Below are positions 4,550-61,391 of a stretch of 64,000 nucleotides of DNA, in pieces (the stretch's first letter is position 1; the number at the start of each line of letters is the position of its first letter). This DNA is from Candidatus Udaeobacter sp. GTDB taxonomy: Bacteria; Patescibacteriota; Patescibacteriia; Magasanikbacterales; GWA2-37-8. The position numbers and the translations under genes are program-made. The notes below the pieces were generated by a model that saw nothing but the letters and a program-made list of their open reading frames with translations, searched no databases and was not told the origin of the DNA. The stretch is taken from NCBI GenBank assembly GCA_035473115.1, contig DATION010000002.1, positions 9,469 to 73,468 of the forward strand, written 5' to 3'.

Positions 4550-4567
4550 ATATATATATATATATAT
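4550..4567. repeat. (AT)9 dinucleotide microsatellite
   Basis: ATATATATATATATATAT read directly from the sequence. Confidence 0.9.
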
Positions 4568-4636
4568 CTACGGATATATTCTCATTCGTTCGAAAATATT
4601 TTAGTAAACTAAATATTTTGCTCACTCATTTCGATT
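4562..4636 (+). promoter_or_regulatory. Conserved ~75-nt leader element, copy A (abuts the dus ATG)
   Basis: Hairpin ATATATC-TACG-GATATAT, then CTCATTCG box, then CACTCATTTCGATT directly before the ATG. Near-identical to 44712-44790. Confidence 0.5.
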
Positions 4637-5695
4637 ATGGTAAATGGATTTTGGAAAAAATTAAAAAAACCGATAATGGTTCTGGCGCCAATGGCTAATG
4701 TCACCGACGCCGCTTTTCGGCGTATCATTGCGAAATACTCAAAATATGGCGGGCAAGATATGGGCGACTGGTCTAAGGAAAGTTTACCCGTCCGAAGCCT
4801 TAGCGAAGGCGGGCCAGATGTAATGTGGACTGAATTTGTGTCTTGTGACGGCTTAATGTCGCCGGGTCAAAAAAAGTTATTGGTAGATTTTATGTATACC
4901 GAAGCCGAGCGTCCGATCGTGGCGCAGATTTTTGGTTCCAAGCCGGAAAATTTTTATAAAACTGCTTTGCTTATCCAAGAGTTAGGTTTTGACGGCATTG
5001 ATATAAATATGGGCTGTCCGGATAAGAATGTAGAAAAACAGGGCGCCGGAGCCTGTCTAATAAAAAATCCTCAGCTAGCTCAAGAAATTATTCGGGAAAC
5101 AAAACGTGGAGCCGGTAAACTGCCGGTTTCAGTTAAAACCAGAATTGGTTATAATAAAAATTCTCTTAGTGAATGGTTGCCGGCATTGCTGGAAACCGAA
5201 CCCGCAGCCATTACCATCCATGCACGCACACGCAAAGAGTTATCTTTAGTTCCGGCCAAATGGGAAACAGTTGCCGATGCGGTGCGTATTCGTGATAGTT
5301 ATGATAGTTCGGAAAATAAAACTTTGATTTTAGGAAATGGGGACGTAAAAGATTTGGCTGATGCGGCAGAAAAAATAAAAATTAGCGGCGCCGACGGGGT
5401 AATGATCGGACGGGGTATTTTTGGTAATCCTTGGCTGTTTAATCCTGCCGTTGATTATGCCAAAATTCCAATTGAAGAAAAATTAAAAGTGATGGTTGAG
5501 CATACTTATTTGTTTGAAAAACTTCTGGTAGAGCACAAAAGTTTTGATATCATGAAAAAACACTACAAAGCCTATGTTAATGGCTTTGACGGCGCCAAAG
5601 AACTTCGTATTCAGTTGATGGAAGGAGCTAAAACTGCAGGTGATGTAGAAAATATTGTCACAATTTTTTTAGAGAAATTAAAAATATCTCAATAA
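4637..5695 (+). CDS. dus: tRNA-dihydrouridine synthase
   Basis: LAPMANVTDAAFR N-terminus and a TIM-barrel Dus family profile with a conserved Cys (NMGCP). Confidence 0.85.
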   Translation: MVNGFWKKLKKPIMVLAPMANVTDAAFRRIIAKYSKYGGQDMGDWSKESLPVRSLSEGGPDVMWTEFVSCDGLMSPGQKKLLVDFMYTEAERPIVAQIFGSKPENFYKTALLIQELGFDGIDINMGCPDKNVEKQGAGACLIKNPQLAQEIIRETKRGAGKLPVSVKTRIGYNKNSLSEWLPALLETEPAAITIHARTRKELSLVPAKWETVADAVRIRDSYDSSENKTLILGNGDVKDLADAAEKIKISGADGVMIGRGIFGNPWLFNPAVDYAKIPIEEKLKVMVEHTYLFEKLLVEHKSFDIMKKHYKAYVNGFDGAKELRIQLMEGAKTAGDVENIVTIFLEKLKISQ

Positions 5696-5780
5696 GTTGG
5701 TATTATTTTTACAGCGACCATCCCACCCTCAAGAGGGCGGCCTGCAAGGTCGTTTGGTCGCAAGAAAATAATACCAACTT
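5694..5780. repeat. AT-rich 16-bp perfect hairpin with conserved GC-rich core (family copy 1)
   Basis: Arms AAGTTGGTATTATTTT / AAAATAATACCAACTT enclose the core ...GCGACCATCCCACC...TTTGGTCGCAAG. Confidence 0.6.
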
Positions 5781-5817
5781 ATTGTTTTTTTTACTTGTTA
5801 AGGCTAATATATAATGT

Positions 5818-11598: not shown

Positions 11599-11606
11599 AA
11601 TTATTA

Positions 11607-11697
11607 GTAAATATTATTATTTTTTTGCTGCAGGTGCGCACGCCCGCAAAGGCTGCAAGCACGCAAGCGGCTTCGCTGCAAAAATAATAATATTTAC
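11607..11697. repeat. AT-rich 18-bp hairpin with GC-rich core (family copy 2, rearranged core)
   Basis: Arms GTAAATATTATTATTTTT / AAAAATAATAATATTTAC; the core carries GGTGCGC and ACGCCCGCAAA motifs. Confidence 0.45.
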
Positions 11698-11710
11698 TTA
11701 AATTATTTAT

Positions 11711-15176: not shown

Positions 15177-15335
15177 ATGGAGCAAATAATGGTACATTGA
15201 GCAATGAAATCGCCCAGTTTTACGGTTGGTTGAATAATCATATTATGCCTTTAATGTACCAGCTAAAGGGACTATTGGATAAAGAAAAAATTGATGTGTT
15301 TGGAGAAGCTAAAGGTTAATTTCATAAATTATAAA

Positions 15336-16427
15336 ATGTCCAAAGACTATTATAAAATTCTTGGCGTAGATAAAAATGCTTCTGTCGATGATATTAAAAA
15401 GGCTTTTAAAAAAGCTGCTATGCAGCATCATCCGGATCGTCCGGGTGGAGATGAGGCTAAATTCAAAGAAGTAAATGAAGCTTACCAAGTTTTAAACGAT
15501 AAAGAAAAGCGCCAACGCTATGACCAGTTTGGCTCTGATTTTGAACAGCAAGGCGGATTCAGCGGTGGAATGAATTGGGAAGATGTTATGCGTCAAGCCA
15601 GAGGCCAAGGTGGTCAGAGCCAAGGTTTTGGTTTTGATTTTGGCGATCTGGGAGATGTTTTTGGCGATATGTTCGGCGGTGGCCGGCAGAGTCGTGGTCC
15701 GGCCAGAGGCAGAGATATTCAGGTAGATGTGGAGATTGATTTTAAGGAAGCTGCATTTGGGGTAGAGCGTGATTTGTCACTGCGTAAACAAGATCAATGC
15801 GATGTTTGTCATGGCACTGGCGGTGAACCAGGCAGTAAAATGGAAAAATGTTCAACCTGTAAAGGGCAAGGGCAGATAGTCCAAACCCAGCGGACATTTT
15901 TGGGTAATATGCAATCAGTAACAACTTGCCCGGATTGTCATGGACGCAAAGAAAAACCGAGCAAGAAATGCAAGCATTGTGGTGGTGATGGTGTTTTATC
16001 CAAAACTTCCAATATAAAAGTAAAAATCCCAGCCGGTATAGACGACGGGCAATCAATTCGCTTAGAAGGCTATGGTGAAGCTGCTGCTCATGGCGGAGGC
16101 AAAGGAGATCTGTATGTGCGGGTTCGTGTTAAAACCTTAAAAGGTTTTGAGCGCGATGGTTTTGATGTTTACTCCGAAAAAGAGATTAGTTTCCCTCAGG
16201 CAGTTTTGGGTGATCATATTGATGTAGAAACTTTGGACGGAGCAGTTAAGATTTCTGTGCCGGAAGGTACGGAATCCGGCCAGTTGATCAGAATTAAAGG
16301 CAAAGGAATTCAACATCTGGGCAGAAGCAGCCGAGGTGATCATTATTTTAAGATAAGAATAAGAGTACCTAAAAAAATAAATAAAGAAACCAGGAAAAAA
16401 TTAGAAGATTTAAAGAAAGATTTATAG
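15336..16427 (+). CDS. dnaJ: Chaperone DnaJ
   Basis: J domain with HPD, G/F region, and four CxxCxGxG zinc-finger repeats. Start set at MSKDYYKILGV. Confidence 0.9.
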   Translation: MSKDYYKILGVDKNASVDDIKKAFKKAAMQHHPDRPGGDEAKFKEVNEAYQVLNDKEKRQRYDQFGSDFEQQGGFSGGMNWEDVMRQARGQGGQSQGFGFDFGDLGDVFGDMFGGGRQSRGPARGRDIQVDVEIDFKEAAFGVERDLSLRKQDQCDVCHGTGGEPGSKMEKCSTCKGQGQIVQTQRTFLGNMQSVTTCPDCHGRKEKPSKKCKHCGGDGVLSKTSNIKVKIPAGIDDGQSIRLEGYGEAAAHGGGKGDLYVRVRVKTLKGFERDGFDVYSEKEISFPQAVLGDHIDVETLDGAVKISVPEGTESGQLIRIKGKGIQHLGRSSRGDHYFKIRIRVPKKINKETRKKLEDLKKDL

Positions 16428-16434
16428 TTTATAA

Positions 16435-16529
16435 AAAATAAATAACATAAATTTTTTACGCCCAAACTCTCCTTGCAGTCGGCCTCTGCGGAGGTGCGAT
16501 GGTCGTAATAAATTTATGTTATTTATTTT
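16435..16529. repeat. AT-rich 20-bp perfect hairpin with conserved GC-rich core (family copy 3, inverted orientation)
   Basis: Arms AAAATAAATAACATAAATTT / AAATTTATGTTATTTATTTT. The reverse complement of the core shares ACGACCATCGCACC and TTTGGGCGTAAAA with copy 4. Confidence 0.6.
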
Positions 16530-16534
16530 AGCGT

Positions 16535-16936
16535 TTATCTTCTATTGTCAAGTATTTTATTTACCCAATGATCCGCTTCTTGATTTTTGGCGCGCAGCAC
16601 ATGGCGGAAAGAAACTTTTTTAAAAGCACTGGTTAAATTAAAAGCTTGGATGAAAAGTTTTTGCAGAGTTGGTTCTTTTACCTTGTACTGTCTGTTCATC
16701 TGTTTGGTTACCAGTTCGCTGTCTAAGATACATTCGACTTCGGTAGCTCCTAATTCTTTGGCTTTTTTTAACGCAGAAATCAAAGCTGAATATTCAGCAT
16801 AATTATTAGTTTGTTCGCCAAGATATTCTCCGTAGCCGGCTATTGTTTTACCGGTTGCGTCTTTTATAATTATGCCCGCGGCCGCTGGGCCTGGGTTGCC
16901 GCGCGCGCCACCATCAGTATAAGTAGTGAGTTTCAT
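16535..16936 (-). CDS. rnhA: Ribonuclease HI
   Basis: TDGGARGNPGPAA, NNxAEY, DS.LV and RxxNxxAD motifs of the RNase H fold. Confidence 0.85.
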   Translation of the reverse strand: MKLTTYTDGGARGNPGPAAAGIIIKDATGKTIAGYGEYLGEQTNNYAEYSALISALKKAKELGATEVECILDSELVTKQMNRQYKVKEPTLQKLFIQAFNLTSAFKKVSFRHVLRAKNQEADHWVNKILDNRR

Positions 16937-32174: not shown

Positions 32175-33077
32175 ATGAATTTGATTTCTAACTTTGACTA
32201 TATCCCAGATATAAACTCAACCGCTCGGAAACCTTCTGACAAGTCAGAGGTTTCGCTCGCTAGTTTCGATTATGAAAAATCTATTTGGGGGTATGGTAAT
32301 GCCAGTTTGAGTTTGAAATCGCCAACGAGCTTTCGTTTGCGCCAAAGTTTAAAGTCAATTGCCGAATTAAAAAGTGGAGCAAAGGTTTTGGAATTAGGCT
32401 GCGGAGCTGGCCAGTTTATTCGTGAAATCAAGAAAATCAGACCGGATCTGGATTGTTATGGCTGTGATATTAGTCAACATGCAATTGCTTTGGCCAAACA
32501 AGCTGATGATGGTGTTAGTTATGATTTAAGTACAGAAAACAACTCTACCTATGCCGATAATTTTTTTGATGCGGTTCTGATTTTTGATGTTTTAGAGCAT
32601 GTGGAAAATCCAAGCTTAATTTTATCTGAAGTAAATCGAGTATTAAAAAGCGGGGGAGTATTTTATTCTTTTGTGCCCTGCGAAGCTGACTCGCTATCTT
32701 TTTGGAATTTATTGTACAAACTTGGTTTAAAAAAAGAACTTACTAGAATGTATGCCGGTCACATAAATAAATTTTCTCGCAAGAGTTTGGTAGATATAGT
32801 TCAATCTCATGGTTTCGCTGTAAAATCAGTTAGATATAGCGAGCAGATCCTAGGGCAGTTATTGGGGCTATTTGCATTTTTTTCTATGGATCATTTTGCA
32901 AAGAAAAATCATTTAAGCCAAGTTAATAATGAGCAGTATTTTTATGGCTTAGATCAAAAAGGCGGAGGAGTTTTAAAAGTAATAAAAAATATTGTAAATA
33001 GTTTGGTTGCCTTGGAGTCAATTATTTTTTCTAAAGTTCCATCTCCGAATGTGCATTTAACAGTGGTTAAAAAATAA
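32175..33077 (+). CDS. Class I SAM-dependent methyltransferase
   Basis: VLELGCGAG motif I. Confidence 0.75.
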   Translation: MNLISNFDYIPDINSTARKPSDKSEVSLASFDYEKSIWGYGNASLSLKSPTSFRLRQSLKSIAELKSGAKVLELGCGAGQFIREIKKIRPDLDCYGCDISQHAIALAKQADDGVSYDLSTENNSTYADNFFDAVLIFDVLEHVENPSLILSEVNRVLKSGGVFYSFVPCEADSLSFWNLLYKLGLKKELTRMYAGHINKFSRKSLVDIVQSHGFAVKSVRYSEQILGQLLGLFAFFSMDHFAKKNHLSQVNNEQYFYGLDQKGGGVLKVIKNIVNSLVALESIIFSKVPSPNVHLTVVKK

Positions 33078-33083
33078 TAAAAT

Positions 33084-33178
33084 AACCTCAGTTATAATAA
33101 TTTTTGCAACGACCATCGCACCCCCAGGTGGGAGACCGTAGGGAATTTGGGCGTAAAAAAATTATTATAACTGAGGTT
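33084..33178. repeat. AT-rich 22-bp perfect hairpin with conserved GC-rich core (family copy 4)
   Basis: Arms AACCTCAGTTATAATAATTTTT / AAAAATTATTATAACTGAGGTT; core GCAACGACCATCGCACC...TTTGGGCGTAAA. Confidence 0.6.
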
Positions 33179-33185
33179 TAGACTT

Positions 33186-33698
33186 ATGCGCGTCATCCAT
33201 GTAATTCCATCCGCTTTTGAATATTTTGACGATATTAGATCGCAAGCTTTTAAGTTACTAGAAGAATTAAATAAGTTAGGAGTAGAAACTGAAGCTTTTA
33301 CTCTGCAGTACGGGTCGCCAAATAGAGAGGAAAAAGCAAGTATTAAAGAAGCTGCACCATCGGTTCATAGTCACATAGGGGATTTTAATGCTAAGAACGT
33401 TATCGAAAGTTTTTCTGATTTTGATATAGTGCATCTGCATTGTCCATTTTTTGGCGCAGCTGGCAAAATTTTGCGCTGGAAAAAACTTAATCCAAACTCT
33501 CCATTAGTTATTACTTATTACCGCGAAATAAAATTAGAAGATACTTTCAGTCTTATTATCAGGCTCTATAACGCTTATTTTTTACCAAAGATCTTTAACT
33601 TAGCAGACGCCTCCTATCGTTTTAATAGAGAACAATCAACAGAGTCTATTGCGGCGGAAACATTATCAGTGTATAATAGCTTTTATACAGCTAACTAG
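33186..33698 (+). pseudogene. Truncated GT4 glycosyltransferase (N-terminal domain only)
   Basis: 170 aa, paralogous to the N-terminal half of the 31061..32173 product (MRV.HV...HLH.PF.G....ITYH); the C-terminal catalytic domain is missing. Confidence 0.45.
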
Positions 33699-44711: not shown

Positions 44712-44790
44712 AATTATATCTGCGGATATAAACTCATTCGCTCAGAAATAAATTAAAAATATTAATTTATTTCTTTCACTCATTTCGATT
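44712..44790 (+). promoter_or_regulatory. Conserved ~75-nt leader element, copy B (abuts the rsmH ATG)
   Basis: Hairpin TTATATC-TGCG-GATATAA, CTCATTCG box, and CACTCATTTCGATT directly before the ATG. Confidence 0.5.
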
Positions 44791-45693
44791 ATGAAACATA
44801 TACCTGTTTTACTTTCCGAAGCGATAGATTCTTTACAACTTAAGCCAAATCAAAATGTCGTTGATTGCACTTTGGGCGATGCCGGGCATAGTGAAATTAT
44901 TTTGCAAAAAATCGCGCCCAAAGGAAAATTGTTAGGCATAGATCTGGATGCGGAAGCAGTTTTGCGTTCAAAAAGATTTTTATATAATTTTGAATCCAGA
45001 ACTGTAATCGCACGAGATAATTTTGCCAATTTAAAAGCGATTGCTGAGAAAAATAATTTTAAACCGGTTAACGCCATTTTAATGGATTTGGGCTGGTCCA
45101 CGCCGCAATTTGAAGAACGAGGCAGGGGATTCAGTTTTTTAAAAGATGAACCCCTAGACATGCGTTATTCAACCATCGAACTACAAACCGCCGCAGACAT
45201 TATAAATAGTTATAGCGAAAGCGAGTTGGCAGGTATATTCAAAAATTTTGGTGAAGAAAGTTTAAGCAAAGAAATAGCCAAAGCCGTTGCAAGTTATAGG
45301 AAGAACAAAAAAATAGCCAAAACAGGAGAGTTAGCAGAAATAATTTTGCAAGTGTATAGAGAAAAACTGCGTACAAATAAAGAAATTCCCTGGATCGGCG
45401 GTTTACATCCGGCCACAAAAGTTTTTCAAGCACTGCGCATGGAAGTAAATCATGAGTTGGATAATTTAAAAAAAGTTTTGCCGCAAGCCGTAGAAATTTT
45501 GGCCGGCGGCGGCAGATTGGCGGTAATCTCGTTTCATTCTTTGGAAGATAGAATCGTAAAACAATATTTTAAATCAATTGCGGGTAAAACAATAAAATTA
45601 ATTAATAAAAAACCGTTAATAGCTAGTGAGGAAGAAATAAAAAATAACCCCCGCGCTCGGAGCGCTAAGCTGAGGGTAATAGAAAAAATTTAA
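44791..45693 (+). CDS. rsmH: 16S rRNA (cytosine1402-N4)-methyltransferase RsmH (MraW)
   Basis: MraW family signature; dcw cluster context. Confidence 0.9.
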   Translation: MKHIPVLLSEAIDSLQLKPNQNVVDCTLGDAGHSEIILQKIAPKGKLLGIDLDAEAVLRSKRFLYNFESRTVIARDNFANLKAIAEKNNFKPVNAILMDLGWSTPQFEERGRGFSFLKDEPLDMRYSTIELQTAADIINSYSESELAGIFKNFGEESLSKEIAKAVASYRKNKKIAKTGELAEIILQVYREKLRTNKEIPWIGGLHPATKVFQALRMEVNHELDNLKKVLPQAVEILAGGGRLAVISFHSLEDRIVKQYFKSIAGKTIKLINKKPLIASEEEIKNNPRARSAKLRVIEKI

Positions 45694-52404: not shown

Positions 52405-52438
52405 AAAAACACCTTGTACATTTGTACGAGGTGTTTTT
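52405..52438. terminator. Bidirectional terminator (recR / GC-rich gene)
   Basis: ACACCTTGTAC-attt-GTACGAGGTGT flanked by A-runs and T-runs. Confidence 0.7.
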
Positions 52439-58229: not shown

Positions 58230-60278
58230 ATGGCTTCAGAAGAAAAAGAAAAAAATATTGCTGGCAATCCGGAAATAAACTACTTTGCCATGACTAATTT
58301 TCGCAATAAAAATGCGAAATTTGGCATAAAGTTGGATGACCGTCGCCGGCATTTGTATGTGGTAGGCAAAACCGGAATGGGTAAAACAACCATGTTGGAA
58401 AACATGGTTCTTAATGATATCTATGCCGGTCATGGTGTCGGCGTAGTGGATCCGCACGGGGATTTTGCCGAAAAAATAATTGACTACATTCCGCCAAATC
58501 GTATCAACGACGTTGTCTATTTTAATCCGGCTGACATCGATTATCCGATCGGTTTTAATATTTTAGAAAGTATTGATCCGCGCTATCGCCATTTGGTAGC
58601 CTCGGGCCTGATGGGTGTTTTCAAAAAAATCTGGCCTGATGTTTGGAGTGCGCGCATGGAATACATTTTGAATAATACTCTTTTGGCTTTGCTGGAATTT
58701 CCTAATACAACTCTTTTGGGTATCAATCGTTTGCTCGCCGATGACGCTTATCGCAAACGAGTCATTAAAAATCTTAAAGATCCGGTCATCAGGTCTTTTT
58801 GGGAATCGGAATTTGCGGGCTATAACGATCGGTATAAGCAAGAAGCGGTAGCGCCGGTGCAAAATAAAATCGGTCAGTTTTTGTCCGCTTCGGTTATTCG
58901 CAATATTGTGGCGCAAGTAAAATCACGTATCAATATCCGCGAAATCATGGATACACGTAAAATTTTCATCATGAACTTATCCAAAGGTAGAATCGGTGAA
59001 GACAACTCCCGTTTGCTTGGTGGTATGTTAATTACCAAAATTCAGCTGGCAGCTATGGAAAGAGTAGACACTCCGGAAAAAGAACGCAAAGACTTTTTTC
59101 TTTATGTAGATGAGTTTCAAAACTTTGCCACTGAAAGCTTTTCTAACATTTTGTCCGAAGCCCGTAAATATCGCTTAGACCTGACCATGGCTCATCAATA
59201 TATGGAGCAGCTAGACGAAACAGTTTTGTCGGCGGTAATTGGTAACGTCGGTACGCTAGTAACTTTTAGAGTTGGCTCAACTGATGCCGAAATTTTAGCC
59301 AAAGAATTTGCCCCGACTTTTGTGGAAACTGATTTAGTAAACTTAACTAAATTTCAAATCTATTTAAAATTAATGATCGATGGCGTCGCCTCGCAGCCAT
59401 TTTCCGCCAACACTTTATCGCCGATAAATTTATCAACCAATAGCGCTGAAAAAGTTATTAAAGTTTCCCGCGAGCGTTATGCCACTAGCCGAGATAATAT
59501 TGAAGATAAAATTATGCGCTGGACCGGTATGGAAAGCGGCGGAACCGGTGAAACTGATGAAGATGATGAAGATTTGGATCCAGATGAAAACTACACTGAA
59601 GATGAAGAAGGTATGCCTGTTAAAATTTCTGATACTCCTAAAGTAACAGAAAAGAAACCGGTTGCACCCGCGCCCATAGCTCCAAAACCAGCTCCGGCGC
59701 CCGTTAAAAATAAAATGCCGGTGACAAATAATAACCGTTCATCTTCACCGGCTATTAATTCAACTGCCAAAAGGCCGCCAGCAGATATTAAAGGAGGCAA
59801 GCCGGTTTTATTAGTTGATACTAACCAAAAAGGCATAAGTTTATCACAGGCTGTGCATGCAAATAAAAATCAACAAAAACCGCCTCAGATTACCAAACAG
59901 TCTCCACCGGTTATAGAAAAAAAACAGGAACTTAAACCGGCAGCTTCTAATTTTAACCAAGCAAAACCAACTCCATCTCCATCTCCATCTCCATCTCCAT
60001 CTCCATCGTCAATATCAGCGCAGTCTGCGGTAGCTTCAGTTCAACCAAAAAATATTCCGCAACCAGCCCTTTCTGATAAAAAAGAACTAAATAGTGATAC
60101 TACGCCAATTCCAGTTTCAACTGCTTCTAATCAGCCAGCTGCTCCGCAGGATTCATTACCGCCAGCTGTTAAAGAATTAGAAAAACCAGTAGTGGCAGCT
60201 AGTTTGCCAAATCAGCAGGGTGCCATAGTTGGCGGAAAGATTATGCCAAATAGAATTGTAAAATTAGACGATAAATAA
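58230..60278 (+). CDS. TraD/VirD4/HerA-like (DUF87-type) P-loop ATPase with Pro/Ser-rich C-terminal tail
   Basis: Walker A VVGKTGMGKTTM and Walker B FLYVDEFQNF; no N-terminal TM; the final ~270 aa are low-complexity PAPxP/PSPS. Confidence 0.65.
   Translation: MASEEKEKNIAGNPEINYFAMTNFRNKNAKFGIKLDDRRRHLYVVGKTGMGKTTMLENMVLNDIYAGHGVGVVDPHGDFAEKIIDYIPPNRINDVVYFNPADIDYPIGFNILESIDPRYRHLVASGLMGVFKKIWPDVWSARMEYILNNTLLALLEFPNTTLLGINRLLADDAYRKRVIKNLKDPVIRSFWESEFAGYNDRYKQEAVAPVQNKIGQFLSASVIRNIVAQVKSRINIREIMDTRKIFIMNLSKGRIGEDNSRLLGGMLITKIQLAAMERVDTPEKERKDFFLYVDEFQNFATESFSNILSEARKYRLDLTMAHQYMEQLDETVLSAVIGNVGTLVTFRVGSTDAEILAKEFAPTFVETDLVNLTKFQIYLKLMIDGVASQPFSANTLSPINLSTNSAEKVIKVSRERYATSRDNIEDKIMRWTGMESGGTGETDEDDEDLDPDENYTEDEEGMPVKISDTPKVTEKKPVAPAPIAPKPAPAPVKNKMPVTNNNRSSSPAINSTAKRPPADIKGGKPVLLVDTNQKGISLSQAVHANKNQQKPPQITKQSPPVIEKKQELKPAASNFNQAKPTPSPSPSPSPSPSSISAQSAVASVQPKNIPQPALSDKKELNSDTTPIPVSTASNQPAAPQDSLPPAVKELEKPVVAASLPNQQGAIVGGKIMPNRIVKLDDK
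59973..60008 (+). repeat. (CCATCT)5-CCATCG hexanucleotide tandem repeat encoding (PS)n
   Basis: Perfect tandem copies inside the ATPase tail ORF, in frame. Confidence 0.9.
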
Positions 60279-60794: not shown

Positions 60795-60805
60795 TTTTCA
60801 AAAAC

Positions 60806-60842
60806 AAAACACCTTCCTTAATCGGAAGGTGTTTTGTTTTTT
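60806..60842 (+). terminator. Intrinsic terminator
   Basis: AAAACACCTTCC-ttaatc-GGAAGGTGTTTT followed by GTTTTTT. Confidence 0.8.
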
Positions 60843-61391
60843 AAAGAATTTTTTTAAAATAAAATAATTTTAATTTCTATTTACGCTTTTTGACCGAGCA
60901 AAAAGCGTAAGAAAAACTCGCCGAGCCAGTGCTCTCCACCGGTACTTCCATCGGCTCATGTCGCTTTGGCTGGCAAAGAGCATAGTCGCATGCCAGCCAA
61001 TAGCCTGACATTTCACCGTGGCAAGTACACGGTGAATCGCAAAGCTCGGATCGACCGTCCATTGTCCGTCGTTGTCAGTTCGGGCGAGCATTGGAAATCT
61101 TGAGGTTTAATTTATAGGTGAATTGGAATGGTCGCTATTATTCCATCTGTAGATGGAATAATAGGACTGGTTGTGCTGTTTGAGCCGACCGTTAGAAACG
61201 GTCGAGCGAGTTCACAACCAGAATGACAATGAATCCTAAATTATCCGAAAGTTTCCACCGCGAGCGATTCTTGGTTACTTCTTTGAAGAAGTAACGGGGG
61301 ATGGTTACAAAAGGTGGATGTTAGGTTTGGGTTAGGAAAAGTTAGTAGTACTTTACTTGAAAAAATCTAAAAAATAGAGTAGTTTAGGTTT

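Follow-up and report, generated by a model that had tools for sequence, protein, structure and literature searches.

A hairpin element fills the spacer between dnaJ and rnhA

In the 64,000-nucleotide stretch of DNA analyzed here (hereafter the window), dnaJ and rnhA converge on a 107-bp spacer that holds a single hairpin, copy 3 (element B), and nothing else (Table 1). Pfam matches to both genes bear out the convergent arrangement on which the original prediction was built. Copy 3 begins and ends exactly with a perfect 20-bp inverted repeat, whose AT-rich arms enclose a strand-asymmetric core of 56% GC, as compared to 39% GC for the window overall. By symmetry, the U-rich tract that forms the outer part of the right arm (GTTATTTATTTT) also ends the hairpin on the opposite strand. 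The predicted fold of the core itself comprises a 7-bp inner helix (ACGACCA/UGGGCGU) with an A·G mismatch at its center, an internal loop that is conserved, and an apical hairpin that varies.

Table 1 Features of the copy 3 locus, of the other hairpin elements, and of the corresponding sites in relatives (positions refer to the window unless another sequence is named)
Feature	Position	Strand	Description
dnaJ	15291–16427	+	Pfam DnaJ; stop codon 7 nt before the copy 3 hairpin
Copy 3 (element B)	16435–16529	−	95-nt hairpin in the 16428–16534 spacer
Copy 3 left arm, AAAATAAATAACATAAATTT	16435–16454		Perfect complement of 16510–16529; outer part A-rich
Conserved block TTTGGGCGTAAAA	16454–16466	−	3′ basal part of copy 3 core plus arm start
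Copy 3 core	16455–16509	−	55 nt; sense on minus strand; 56% GC
Conserved block ACGACCATCGCACC	16493–16506	−	5′ basal part of copy 3 core
Copy 3 right arm, AAATTTATGTTATTTATTTT	16510–16529		Outer 12 nt are the U-rich tract GTTATTTATTTT
rnhA (RNase H)	16535–16936	−	Pfam; stop codon 5 nt from the copy 3 hairpin
Copy A	5690–5784	+	20-bp perfect arms; 55-nt core homologous to copy 3
Look-alike element	11606–11698		19-bp perfect arms; 55-nt GC-rich core; between hrcA and grpE
Copy C (copy 4 of the original prediction)	33084–33178	+	22-bp perfect arms; 51-nt core homologous to copy 3
L016 copy	L016 584–678		Other Magasanikbacteria-like genome
L040 copy	L040 1711–1807		Other genome; identical to the L119 element
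Canonical terminator	52405–52438		In the window
Canonical terminator	60798–60843		In the window
Terminator at rnhA junction	L131 13205–13255		Relative
Terminator at rnhA junction	L134 12384–12418		Relative
Terminator at rnhA junction	L139 13661–13694		Relative
Terminator at rnhA junction	L144 13441–13473		Relative
Sigma-factor cassette	L131 11106–13202		Relative; example of the cassette between dnaJ and rnhA
Dus/PLD spacer (copy A)			31 bp in relatives, 122 bp with element
HrcA/GrpE spacer (11606 element)			4 bp in three relatives, 112 bp with element
PALP/GHL15 spacer, convergent (L040/L119 copy)			4 bp in two relatives (85–86% protein identity), 116 bp with element
CarB/UvrD spacer (L016 copy)			12 bp in the closest relative (88%), ~114 bp with element

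Two blocks of the copy 3 core had been said to recur, in reverse orientation, in a second element of the window (copy C). Both do so exactly, ACGACCATCGCACC at 16493–16506 (−) and 33109–33122 (+), and TTTGGGCGTAAAA at 16454–16466 (−) and 33146–33158 (+). With ≤2 mismatches, ACGACCATCGCACC has a third site at 5714–5727 (+), i.e., three sites compared to 0.15 expected, a number reached in none of 100 shuffles. The inverted orientation of copy 3 was confirmed with a covariance model of the family (see below): the minus strand of the element scores 73.8 bits and its plus strand 39.3 bits. Given this difference, and with plus-strand placements for the other two window copies, the assigned orientation is robust. 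With respect to rnhA, copy 3 is in sense orientation just 3′ of the stop codon, the same relation that the copies at 5690 and 33084 have to their own upstream genes.

A family of hairpins with homologous cores

A search of the window for perfect arms of ≥15 bp, 25–75 nt apart, returned exactly four elements: copies A, 3, and C, and a look-alike starting at position 11606. Together with the copies in L016 and L040, six elements were thus available, all with perfect arms of 19–22 bp, spacers of 51–55 nt, a total length of 93–97 nt, and a core GC content of 56–68%. Five of the six have homologous cores, 67–89% identical overall (67–73% within the window, 75–79% between the window and L016 or L040, and 89% between L016 and L040). 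The 11606 element has the inner-arm motif of the family, but no homology of its core to the other five could be detected (z < 2 in either orientation), and it was rejected as a homolog of these cores; it suggests a wider class of elements with a common frame and different cores. A covariance model built from the five homologous copies (R1) recovered the plus-strand copies at 5686–5788 (91.7 bits) and 33081–33181 (106.7 bits), and, run with filters off, found no additional copy within the 64-kb window.

All six elements are extragenic and start or end 0–19 nt from a stop codon. Four of the five homologous copies lie in sense orientation directly 3′ of a gene, the L016 copy being the only one antisense to both of its neighbors. 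The Dus stop codon lies inside the left arm of copy A, whose right arm is followed by a T8 run, and the right arm of copy C contains the GAGG Shine–Dalgarno-like motif of the next open reading frame (ATG at 33186). This frame (33186–33698; 170 aa) covers no more than the N-terminal half of a GT4 glycosyltransferase and is probably a truncated gene in a polysaccharide cluster. In L016, the database version of UvrD (646–2802; P0241, 718 aa) includes an extension of ~15 codons read from the element's antisense strand (MVAAKINTHCP...), while UvrD in relatives measures 674–682 aa; the extension is a gene-calling artefact caused by the element.

Separately from this family, the window holds a second, unrelated repeat of ~78 nt in three plus-strand copies (~4562–4639, ~32197–32274, and ~44716–44793), each consisting of TATATCYRCGGATATAAACTCATTCGCTCRGAAA, a hairpin whose arms covary between copies, and TTTCGCTCACTCATTTCGATT-ATG. 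The copies end exactly on an ATG, namely the Dus start, an internal ATG of a methyltransferase frame (32175–33077), and the MraW/RsmH start. This repeat has no Rfam match and looks like a common promoter or 5′-leader module.

Conserved core base and copy-specific, perfectly paired arm tips

Conservation is confined to the inner ~10 bp of the arms (WATTATTTTT/AAAAATWAW) and the base of the core. The latter forms a 7-bp helix (RCGACCA/UGGKCGY) whose central A·G is once replaced by A-U and whose closing pair has changed from G-C to A-U in a compensatory manner; the unpaired bases that flank the helix (AUCSCAC ... RGUUU) are also conserved. The apical ~25 nt of the cores are variable, with short helices preserved in different ways. 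Overall, changes relative to the consensus affect 6 of 69 cells at the base and 20 of 69 at the apex (p = 0.004). Since the base is unevenly conserved and strand-asymmetric, some factor appears to recognize it, at the DNA or the RNA level, and it is most likely the recognition site of a mobilizing or binding protein.

In the outer ~10 bp of the arms, the sequence is particular to each copy, yet pairing is perfect: the arms of all six elements comprise 124 base pairs, with neither a mismatch nor a G·U pair among them. Even the L016 and L040 copies share only ~4 of 11 outer-arm positions despite their 89% core identity. No match to the outer arms was found in empty-site sequence, nearby, or in the other DNA examined, and copying of the arms from target or donor flanks was rejected on this basis. 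The outer arms may either turn over very rapidly and be kept symmetrical, by selection for pairing or by template switching from arm to arm, or be formed afresh with every insertion. The predicted folds are rod-like and highly stable (−36 to −50 kcal/mol, z −6.7 to −10), with approximately equal energies on both strands; the 11606 look-alike folds less strongly (z about −4).

Distribution across genomes and databases

DnaJ, PALP, and UvrD homologs place the window, L040/L119, and L016 among Magasanikbacteria-like Patescibacteria. The taxonomic labels of two of the source genomes, "Candidatus Udaeobacter sp." for the one holding the window DnaJ and "uncultured Gammaproteobacteria" for L016, look wrong because the best protein relatives are Magasanikbacteria/Patescibacteria. 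The carriers represent three separate Magasanikbacteria lineages, with elements at non-orthologous sites. A pattern scan of genomes gave at least 117 matches; among the matches listed, 115 were chance occurrences in GC-rich genomes and the only real elements were those of L016 and L040, i.e., the same core at unrelated sites in two other Magasanikbacteria genomes. In metagenomes, 12 matches were obtained, and only L119 was real, corresponding to the same element as L040. The pattern scan of viral contigs gave no real match, and a BLAST search of phage and plasmid collections with the L040 element returned nothing similar.

Rfam 15 offers no family for the element: at gathering score, only a tRNA-Glu passes in the whole window, and at E-values up to 10 two of the copies match only generic long-hairpin miRNA models, far below threshold. 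Several specific candidates were considered and set aside. Comparison of the core with consensus sequences was unconvincing for the twister, pistol, and hammerhead motifs as well as for HDV-like, SRP, and 5S helix I/loop E motifs, none of which had an Rfam match, and twister, pistol, hatchet, hammerhead, SRP, 5S, and riboswitch families showed no Rfam 15 match near gathering score. A role of the arms as guides against phages was dismissed as well, the arm sequences of two copies being absent from viral contigs. In the literature, we found no description of a repeat like this for CPR or Magasanikbacteria.

Empty sites in close relatives

We looked for orthologous sites without the element. The synteny of the dnaK region is conserved in seven relatives with DnaJ proteins 74–82% identical, and the ~215 kb from these seven contain no R1 match and no comparable hairpin. 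Across the DNA of all relatives (~290 kb), the R1 model likewise found no copy. For four of the six loci, precise empty sites were present in close relatives, with spacers of 4–31 bp where carriers have ~110–120 bp (Table 1), and at CarB/UvrD the flanks of the empty and filled alleles are identical right up to the insertion. We conclude from these precise empty sites that the elements are lineage-specific insertions, and on grounds of parsimony alone, gain by insertion in three lineages is far preferable to repeated precise loss. Both arms are missing from the clean empty alleles, which indicates that they are brought in by the element and were not already there as terminator stems. An insertion into the loop of an existing terminator hairpin was ruled out at the three clean sites, where the 4–12 bp spacers contain no hairpin and no arms.

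No consistent direct repeat that would represent a target-site duplication could be identified at the four filled-versus-empty junctions, which show just weak and inconsistent AT-rich resemblances (AATTATT at 11606; TATTTATG versus TAATTTGTATG in L016). Neither the ~60 window genes nor the fetched flanks were found to include a transposase or recombinase gene. The original prediction had proposed behavior like a mobile miniature element, with empty sites in relatives as the evidence to look for. Such sites exist at four family loci and sustain the insertion part of this idea; the lack of target duplication and the unconserved arm tips do not agree with a textbook MITE (miniature inverted-repeat transposable element). 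Palindromic insertions of ~95 bp entered tiny intergenic spacers, 0–19 nt from stop codons, in a few Magasanikbacteria genomes.

At the copy 3 site, a sigma-factor cassette of two to three genes, i.e., an ECF-like sigma-70 factor, a putative anti-sigma factor, and a DUF5666 protein, follows dnaJ in seven of seven relatives, with a canonical bidirectional terminator after it. From the window, the cassette has been lost, and copy 3 sits exactly at the deletion junction. Because two to three extra genes separate dnaJ and rnhA in all relatives, the copy 3 site has no strictly orthologous empty spacer.

A candidate two-way terminator for dnaJ and rnhA

All relatives examined carry a canonical bidirectional terminator at the junction before rnhA, composed of an A-tract, a perfect stem of 12–20 bp, a loop of 3–7 nt, and a U-tract. 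The window has canonical terminators elsewhere (Table 1), and only copy 3 at dnaJ/rnhA. One of these other terminators, a strong hairpin at 60798–60843, lies downstream of a frame (58230–60278) with weak matches to type IV secretion coupling-protein/HerA-like ATPases (TrwB_AAD_bind, T4SS-DNA_transf). The canonical terminators of the clade are unusually long, perfectly paired A-tract/U-tract palindromes whose sequence at the same junction differs in every genome, which implies that these hairpins turn over rapidly while staying perfect.

Copy 3 resembles bidirectional intrinsic terminators in its position at the 3′ ends of convergent genes, its pairing A-rich and U-rich flanks, its perfect palindromy, and its folding on both strands. 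Whichever strand is read, its outer arms are A-rich at the 5′ end and U-rich at the 3′ end (GUUAUUUAUUUU), as are those of the L040 copy (GUAUUUUUAUUUU), likewise situated at a convergent junction; copies flanked by co-directional genes (33084, L016, and 11606) are without such tails. Unlike in these terminators, the loop is replaced by a 55-nt conserved core common to unrelated loci and genomes, and the inner arm separates the U-rich tract from the GC-rich helix, so that an A-run, and not a U-run, directly follows the GC-rich inner helix of copy 3. A simple consensus terminator scan does not call copy 3, because the structured core takes the place of a 3–8 nt loop. The family as a whole cannot consist of strong terminators, since the 11606 look-alike sits within the heat-shock operon hrcA-grpE-dnaK and an arm of copy C holds the ribosome-binding site of the next gene.

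If copy 3 is transcribed from either side, it is predicted to form a long and very stable hairpin. The core and inner arms would then serve as the terminator hairpin and the outer 3′ arm (GUUAUUUAUUUU) as the U-tract, in both directions, and copy 3 would stand in for the canonical bidirectional terminator of the relatives. Since the fold is nearly the same on both strands, core orientation would be irrelevant to this role, and a need for both strands to fold, if there is one, would explain the absence of G·U pairs in the arms. An orientation-independent, bidirectional terminator had been among the explanations originally put forward for the inverted copy, and it gains support from the relatives' terminator at this junction and from the A- and U-rich arms on both strands, which at the level of sequence suggest termination. 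On balance, we lean toward copy 3 being a member of a lineage-restricted family of palindromic insertions that would act as a two-way terminator or a 3′-end protective hairpin for dnaJ and rnhA. An insertion origin and a terminator role are not exclusive, and both are supported.

Alternative explanations

The terminator role could in principle be explained without any insertion, i.e., by an ordinary terminator that evolved in place, the similarity between copies reflecting convergence or chance. The setting would suit it: this is a convergent junction where relatives have terminators, in a clade whose terminators are also long perfect palindromes that differ in sequence between genomes. However, exact blocks of 14 and 13 nt and 67–89% identity over ~50 nt in three genomes are far beyond chance, the canonical terminators of the window have loops of 2–14 nt and no 55-nt conserved core like that of copy 3, and copies also occur inside operons, so that core homology and empty sites effectively refute this explanation. 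Alternatively, the core may be a structured RNA, i.e., a small RNA or a protein-binding domain, with the 20–22 bp duplex as a processing stem whose cleavage by RNase III would set free or expose the core of ~55 nt. Processing stems of this kind are found in rRNA and at the intercistronic sites of phage T7, and arms of 19–22 bp, or about two helical turns, have the size of an RNase III substrate. The 75–89% conservation of the core across genomes with unrelated flanks, the concentration of this conservation in the core base with its compensatory change at the closing pair, and the prevalence of sense copies directly 3′ of a gene (4/5) are all in line with such an RNA. Set against these are the antisense position of the L016 copy relative to both flanking genes, the lack of an evident promoter or terminator of its own, the unrelated core that the 11606 look-alike holds in the same frame, the absence of an Rfam match, and the absence from close relatives, which would be odd for an essential RNA. 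Nothing points to strand-specific selection either, given 0 G·U pairs among 124 and equal energies on both strands, and we consider a structured RNA unlikely.

Rather unlikely, too, is a selfish hairpin acting at the DNA level, in which the core base, presented in an extrudable palindrome, would be the site of an HUH/Y1-type transposase or a site-specific recombinase, any effects on RNA being incidental. Perfect Watson–Crick arms without G·U pairs, the lack of target duplication, the occurrence of both orientations, and a patchy presence among relatives would all fit, as would the imperfect inner helix, with its conserved mismatch beside conserved unpaired bases, an arrangement that we take to resemble the hairpins recognized by IS200/IS605 and RAYT enzymes. 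On the other hand, neither the 64-kb window nor the fetched flanks encode a transposase or recombinase, and the elements have no conserved cleavage tetranucleotide and no GTAG/CGTC tag. In addition, outer arms that differ completely between cores 89% identical are not what simple copy-and-paste predicts. A further proposal is that the family is a previously undescribed CPR hairpin element with a mobile or recognized asymmetric core of ~50 nt, each insertion gaining perfect arm extensions of ~10 bp via some enzyme (by hairpin-templated synthesis or rapid arm-to-arm conversion), or with a core that is a new RNase III-released small RNA; we offer it as speculation and would not expect it to hold in this form.

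Comparison with known repeat families

Like bacterial MITEs, the elements are short (93–97 bp), non-coding, and dispersed; the window contains 3 + 1 of them, and four loci have an empty counterpart in relatives. Unlike those of MITEs, their terminal inverted repeats are not conserved, only the inner ~10 bp (WATTATTTTT) being common to the copies, and they are not flanked by a target-site duplication. In the attC sites of integrons, conserved outer core sites (RYYYAAC...GTTRRRY) surround a variable center, close to cassettes and an integrase; here, the center is conserved while the outer ends vary, the neighbors are housekeeping genes, and there is no integrase.

The closest parallels are found among intergenic palindromic repeats. 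Correia elements of Neisseria (CREE/NEMIS) form mRNA hairpins that are RNase III substrates and influence neighboring genes (PMC2649163). As in the present family, they are non-coding intergenic insertions, of ~100–150 bp, with inverted-repeat ends, a directional core, presence/absence variation between strains, and an mRNA hairpin. Correia ends, however, are conserved 26-bp repeats associated with a TA target duplication, whereas the present elements have tips that differ from copy to copy, arms that pair perfectly in every copy, and no duplication; the hosts are also different (Neisseria versus CPR/Patescibacteria), and there is no sequence similarity. REPs are imperfect palindromes of 20–40 bp with an unpaired GTAG or CGTC tag (PMC3733652). 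REPs and BIMEs share with our elements an extragenic location, mostly downstream of coding regions and between unidirectional or convergent ORFs, a plausible transcription into RNA hairpins, and a proposed nature as miniature mobile elements (PMC3733652). In contrast to the high copy number of REPs, the elements described here number ~3–4 per 64 kb, are ~95 bp long with a long non-palindromic conserved core, show no GTAG/CGTC tag in the alignment, and are not accompanied by a RAYT gene in the window or fetched flanks. The GC clusters of organelles (yeast mitochondria; palindromes of Volvox and other green algae) are similar in being short GC-rich hairpins that occur in both orientations in AT-rich intergenic DNA and are regarded as selfish (PMC2670323, PMC7235400). 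They differ in their organelle hosts and in having no long perfect AT-rich arms, and no homology to them was found. Taken together, the family resembles Correia/REP/ERIC-type intergenic palindromic repeats in its working, and is without the features that define them, i.e., conserved termini, target duplication, and a GTAG/CGTC tag.

Implications for compact CPR genomes

Compared to classical MITEs, the architecture of this family is reversed: the asymmetric core and the inner arm are conserved, and the outer arms are copy-specific and always perfect, which raises the question of how such palindromes are generated and kept perfect. For genome analysis, the element misleads gene callers, and it could be used to mark recent changes in the genomes of Magasanikbacteria. 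CPR/Patescibacteria genomes are small, compact, and thought to be repeat-poor, and to our knowledge almost nothing is known of their non-coding elements. Even intergenic spacers of 4 bp in these genomes can take up hairpin insertions of ~100 bp, and such an insertion can replace a canonical terminator and supply stop codons and ribosome-binding sites to the neighboring genes.
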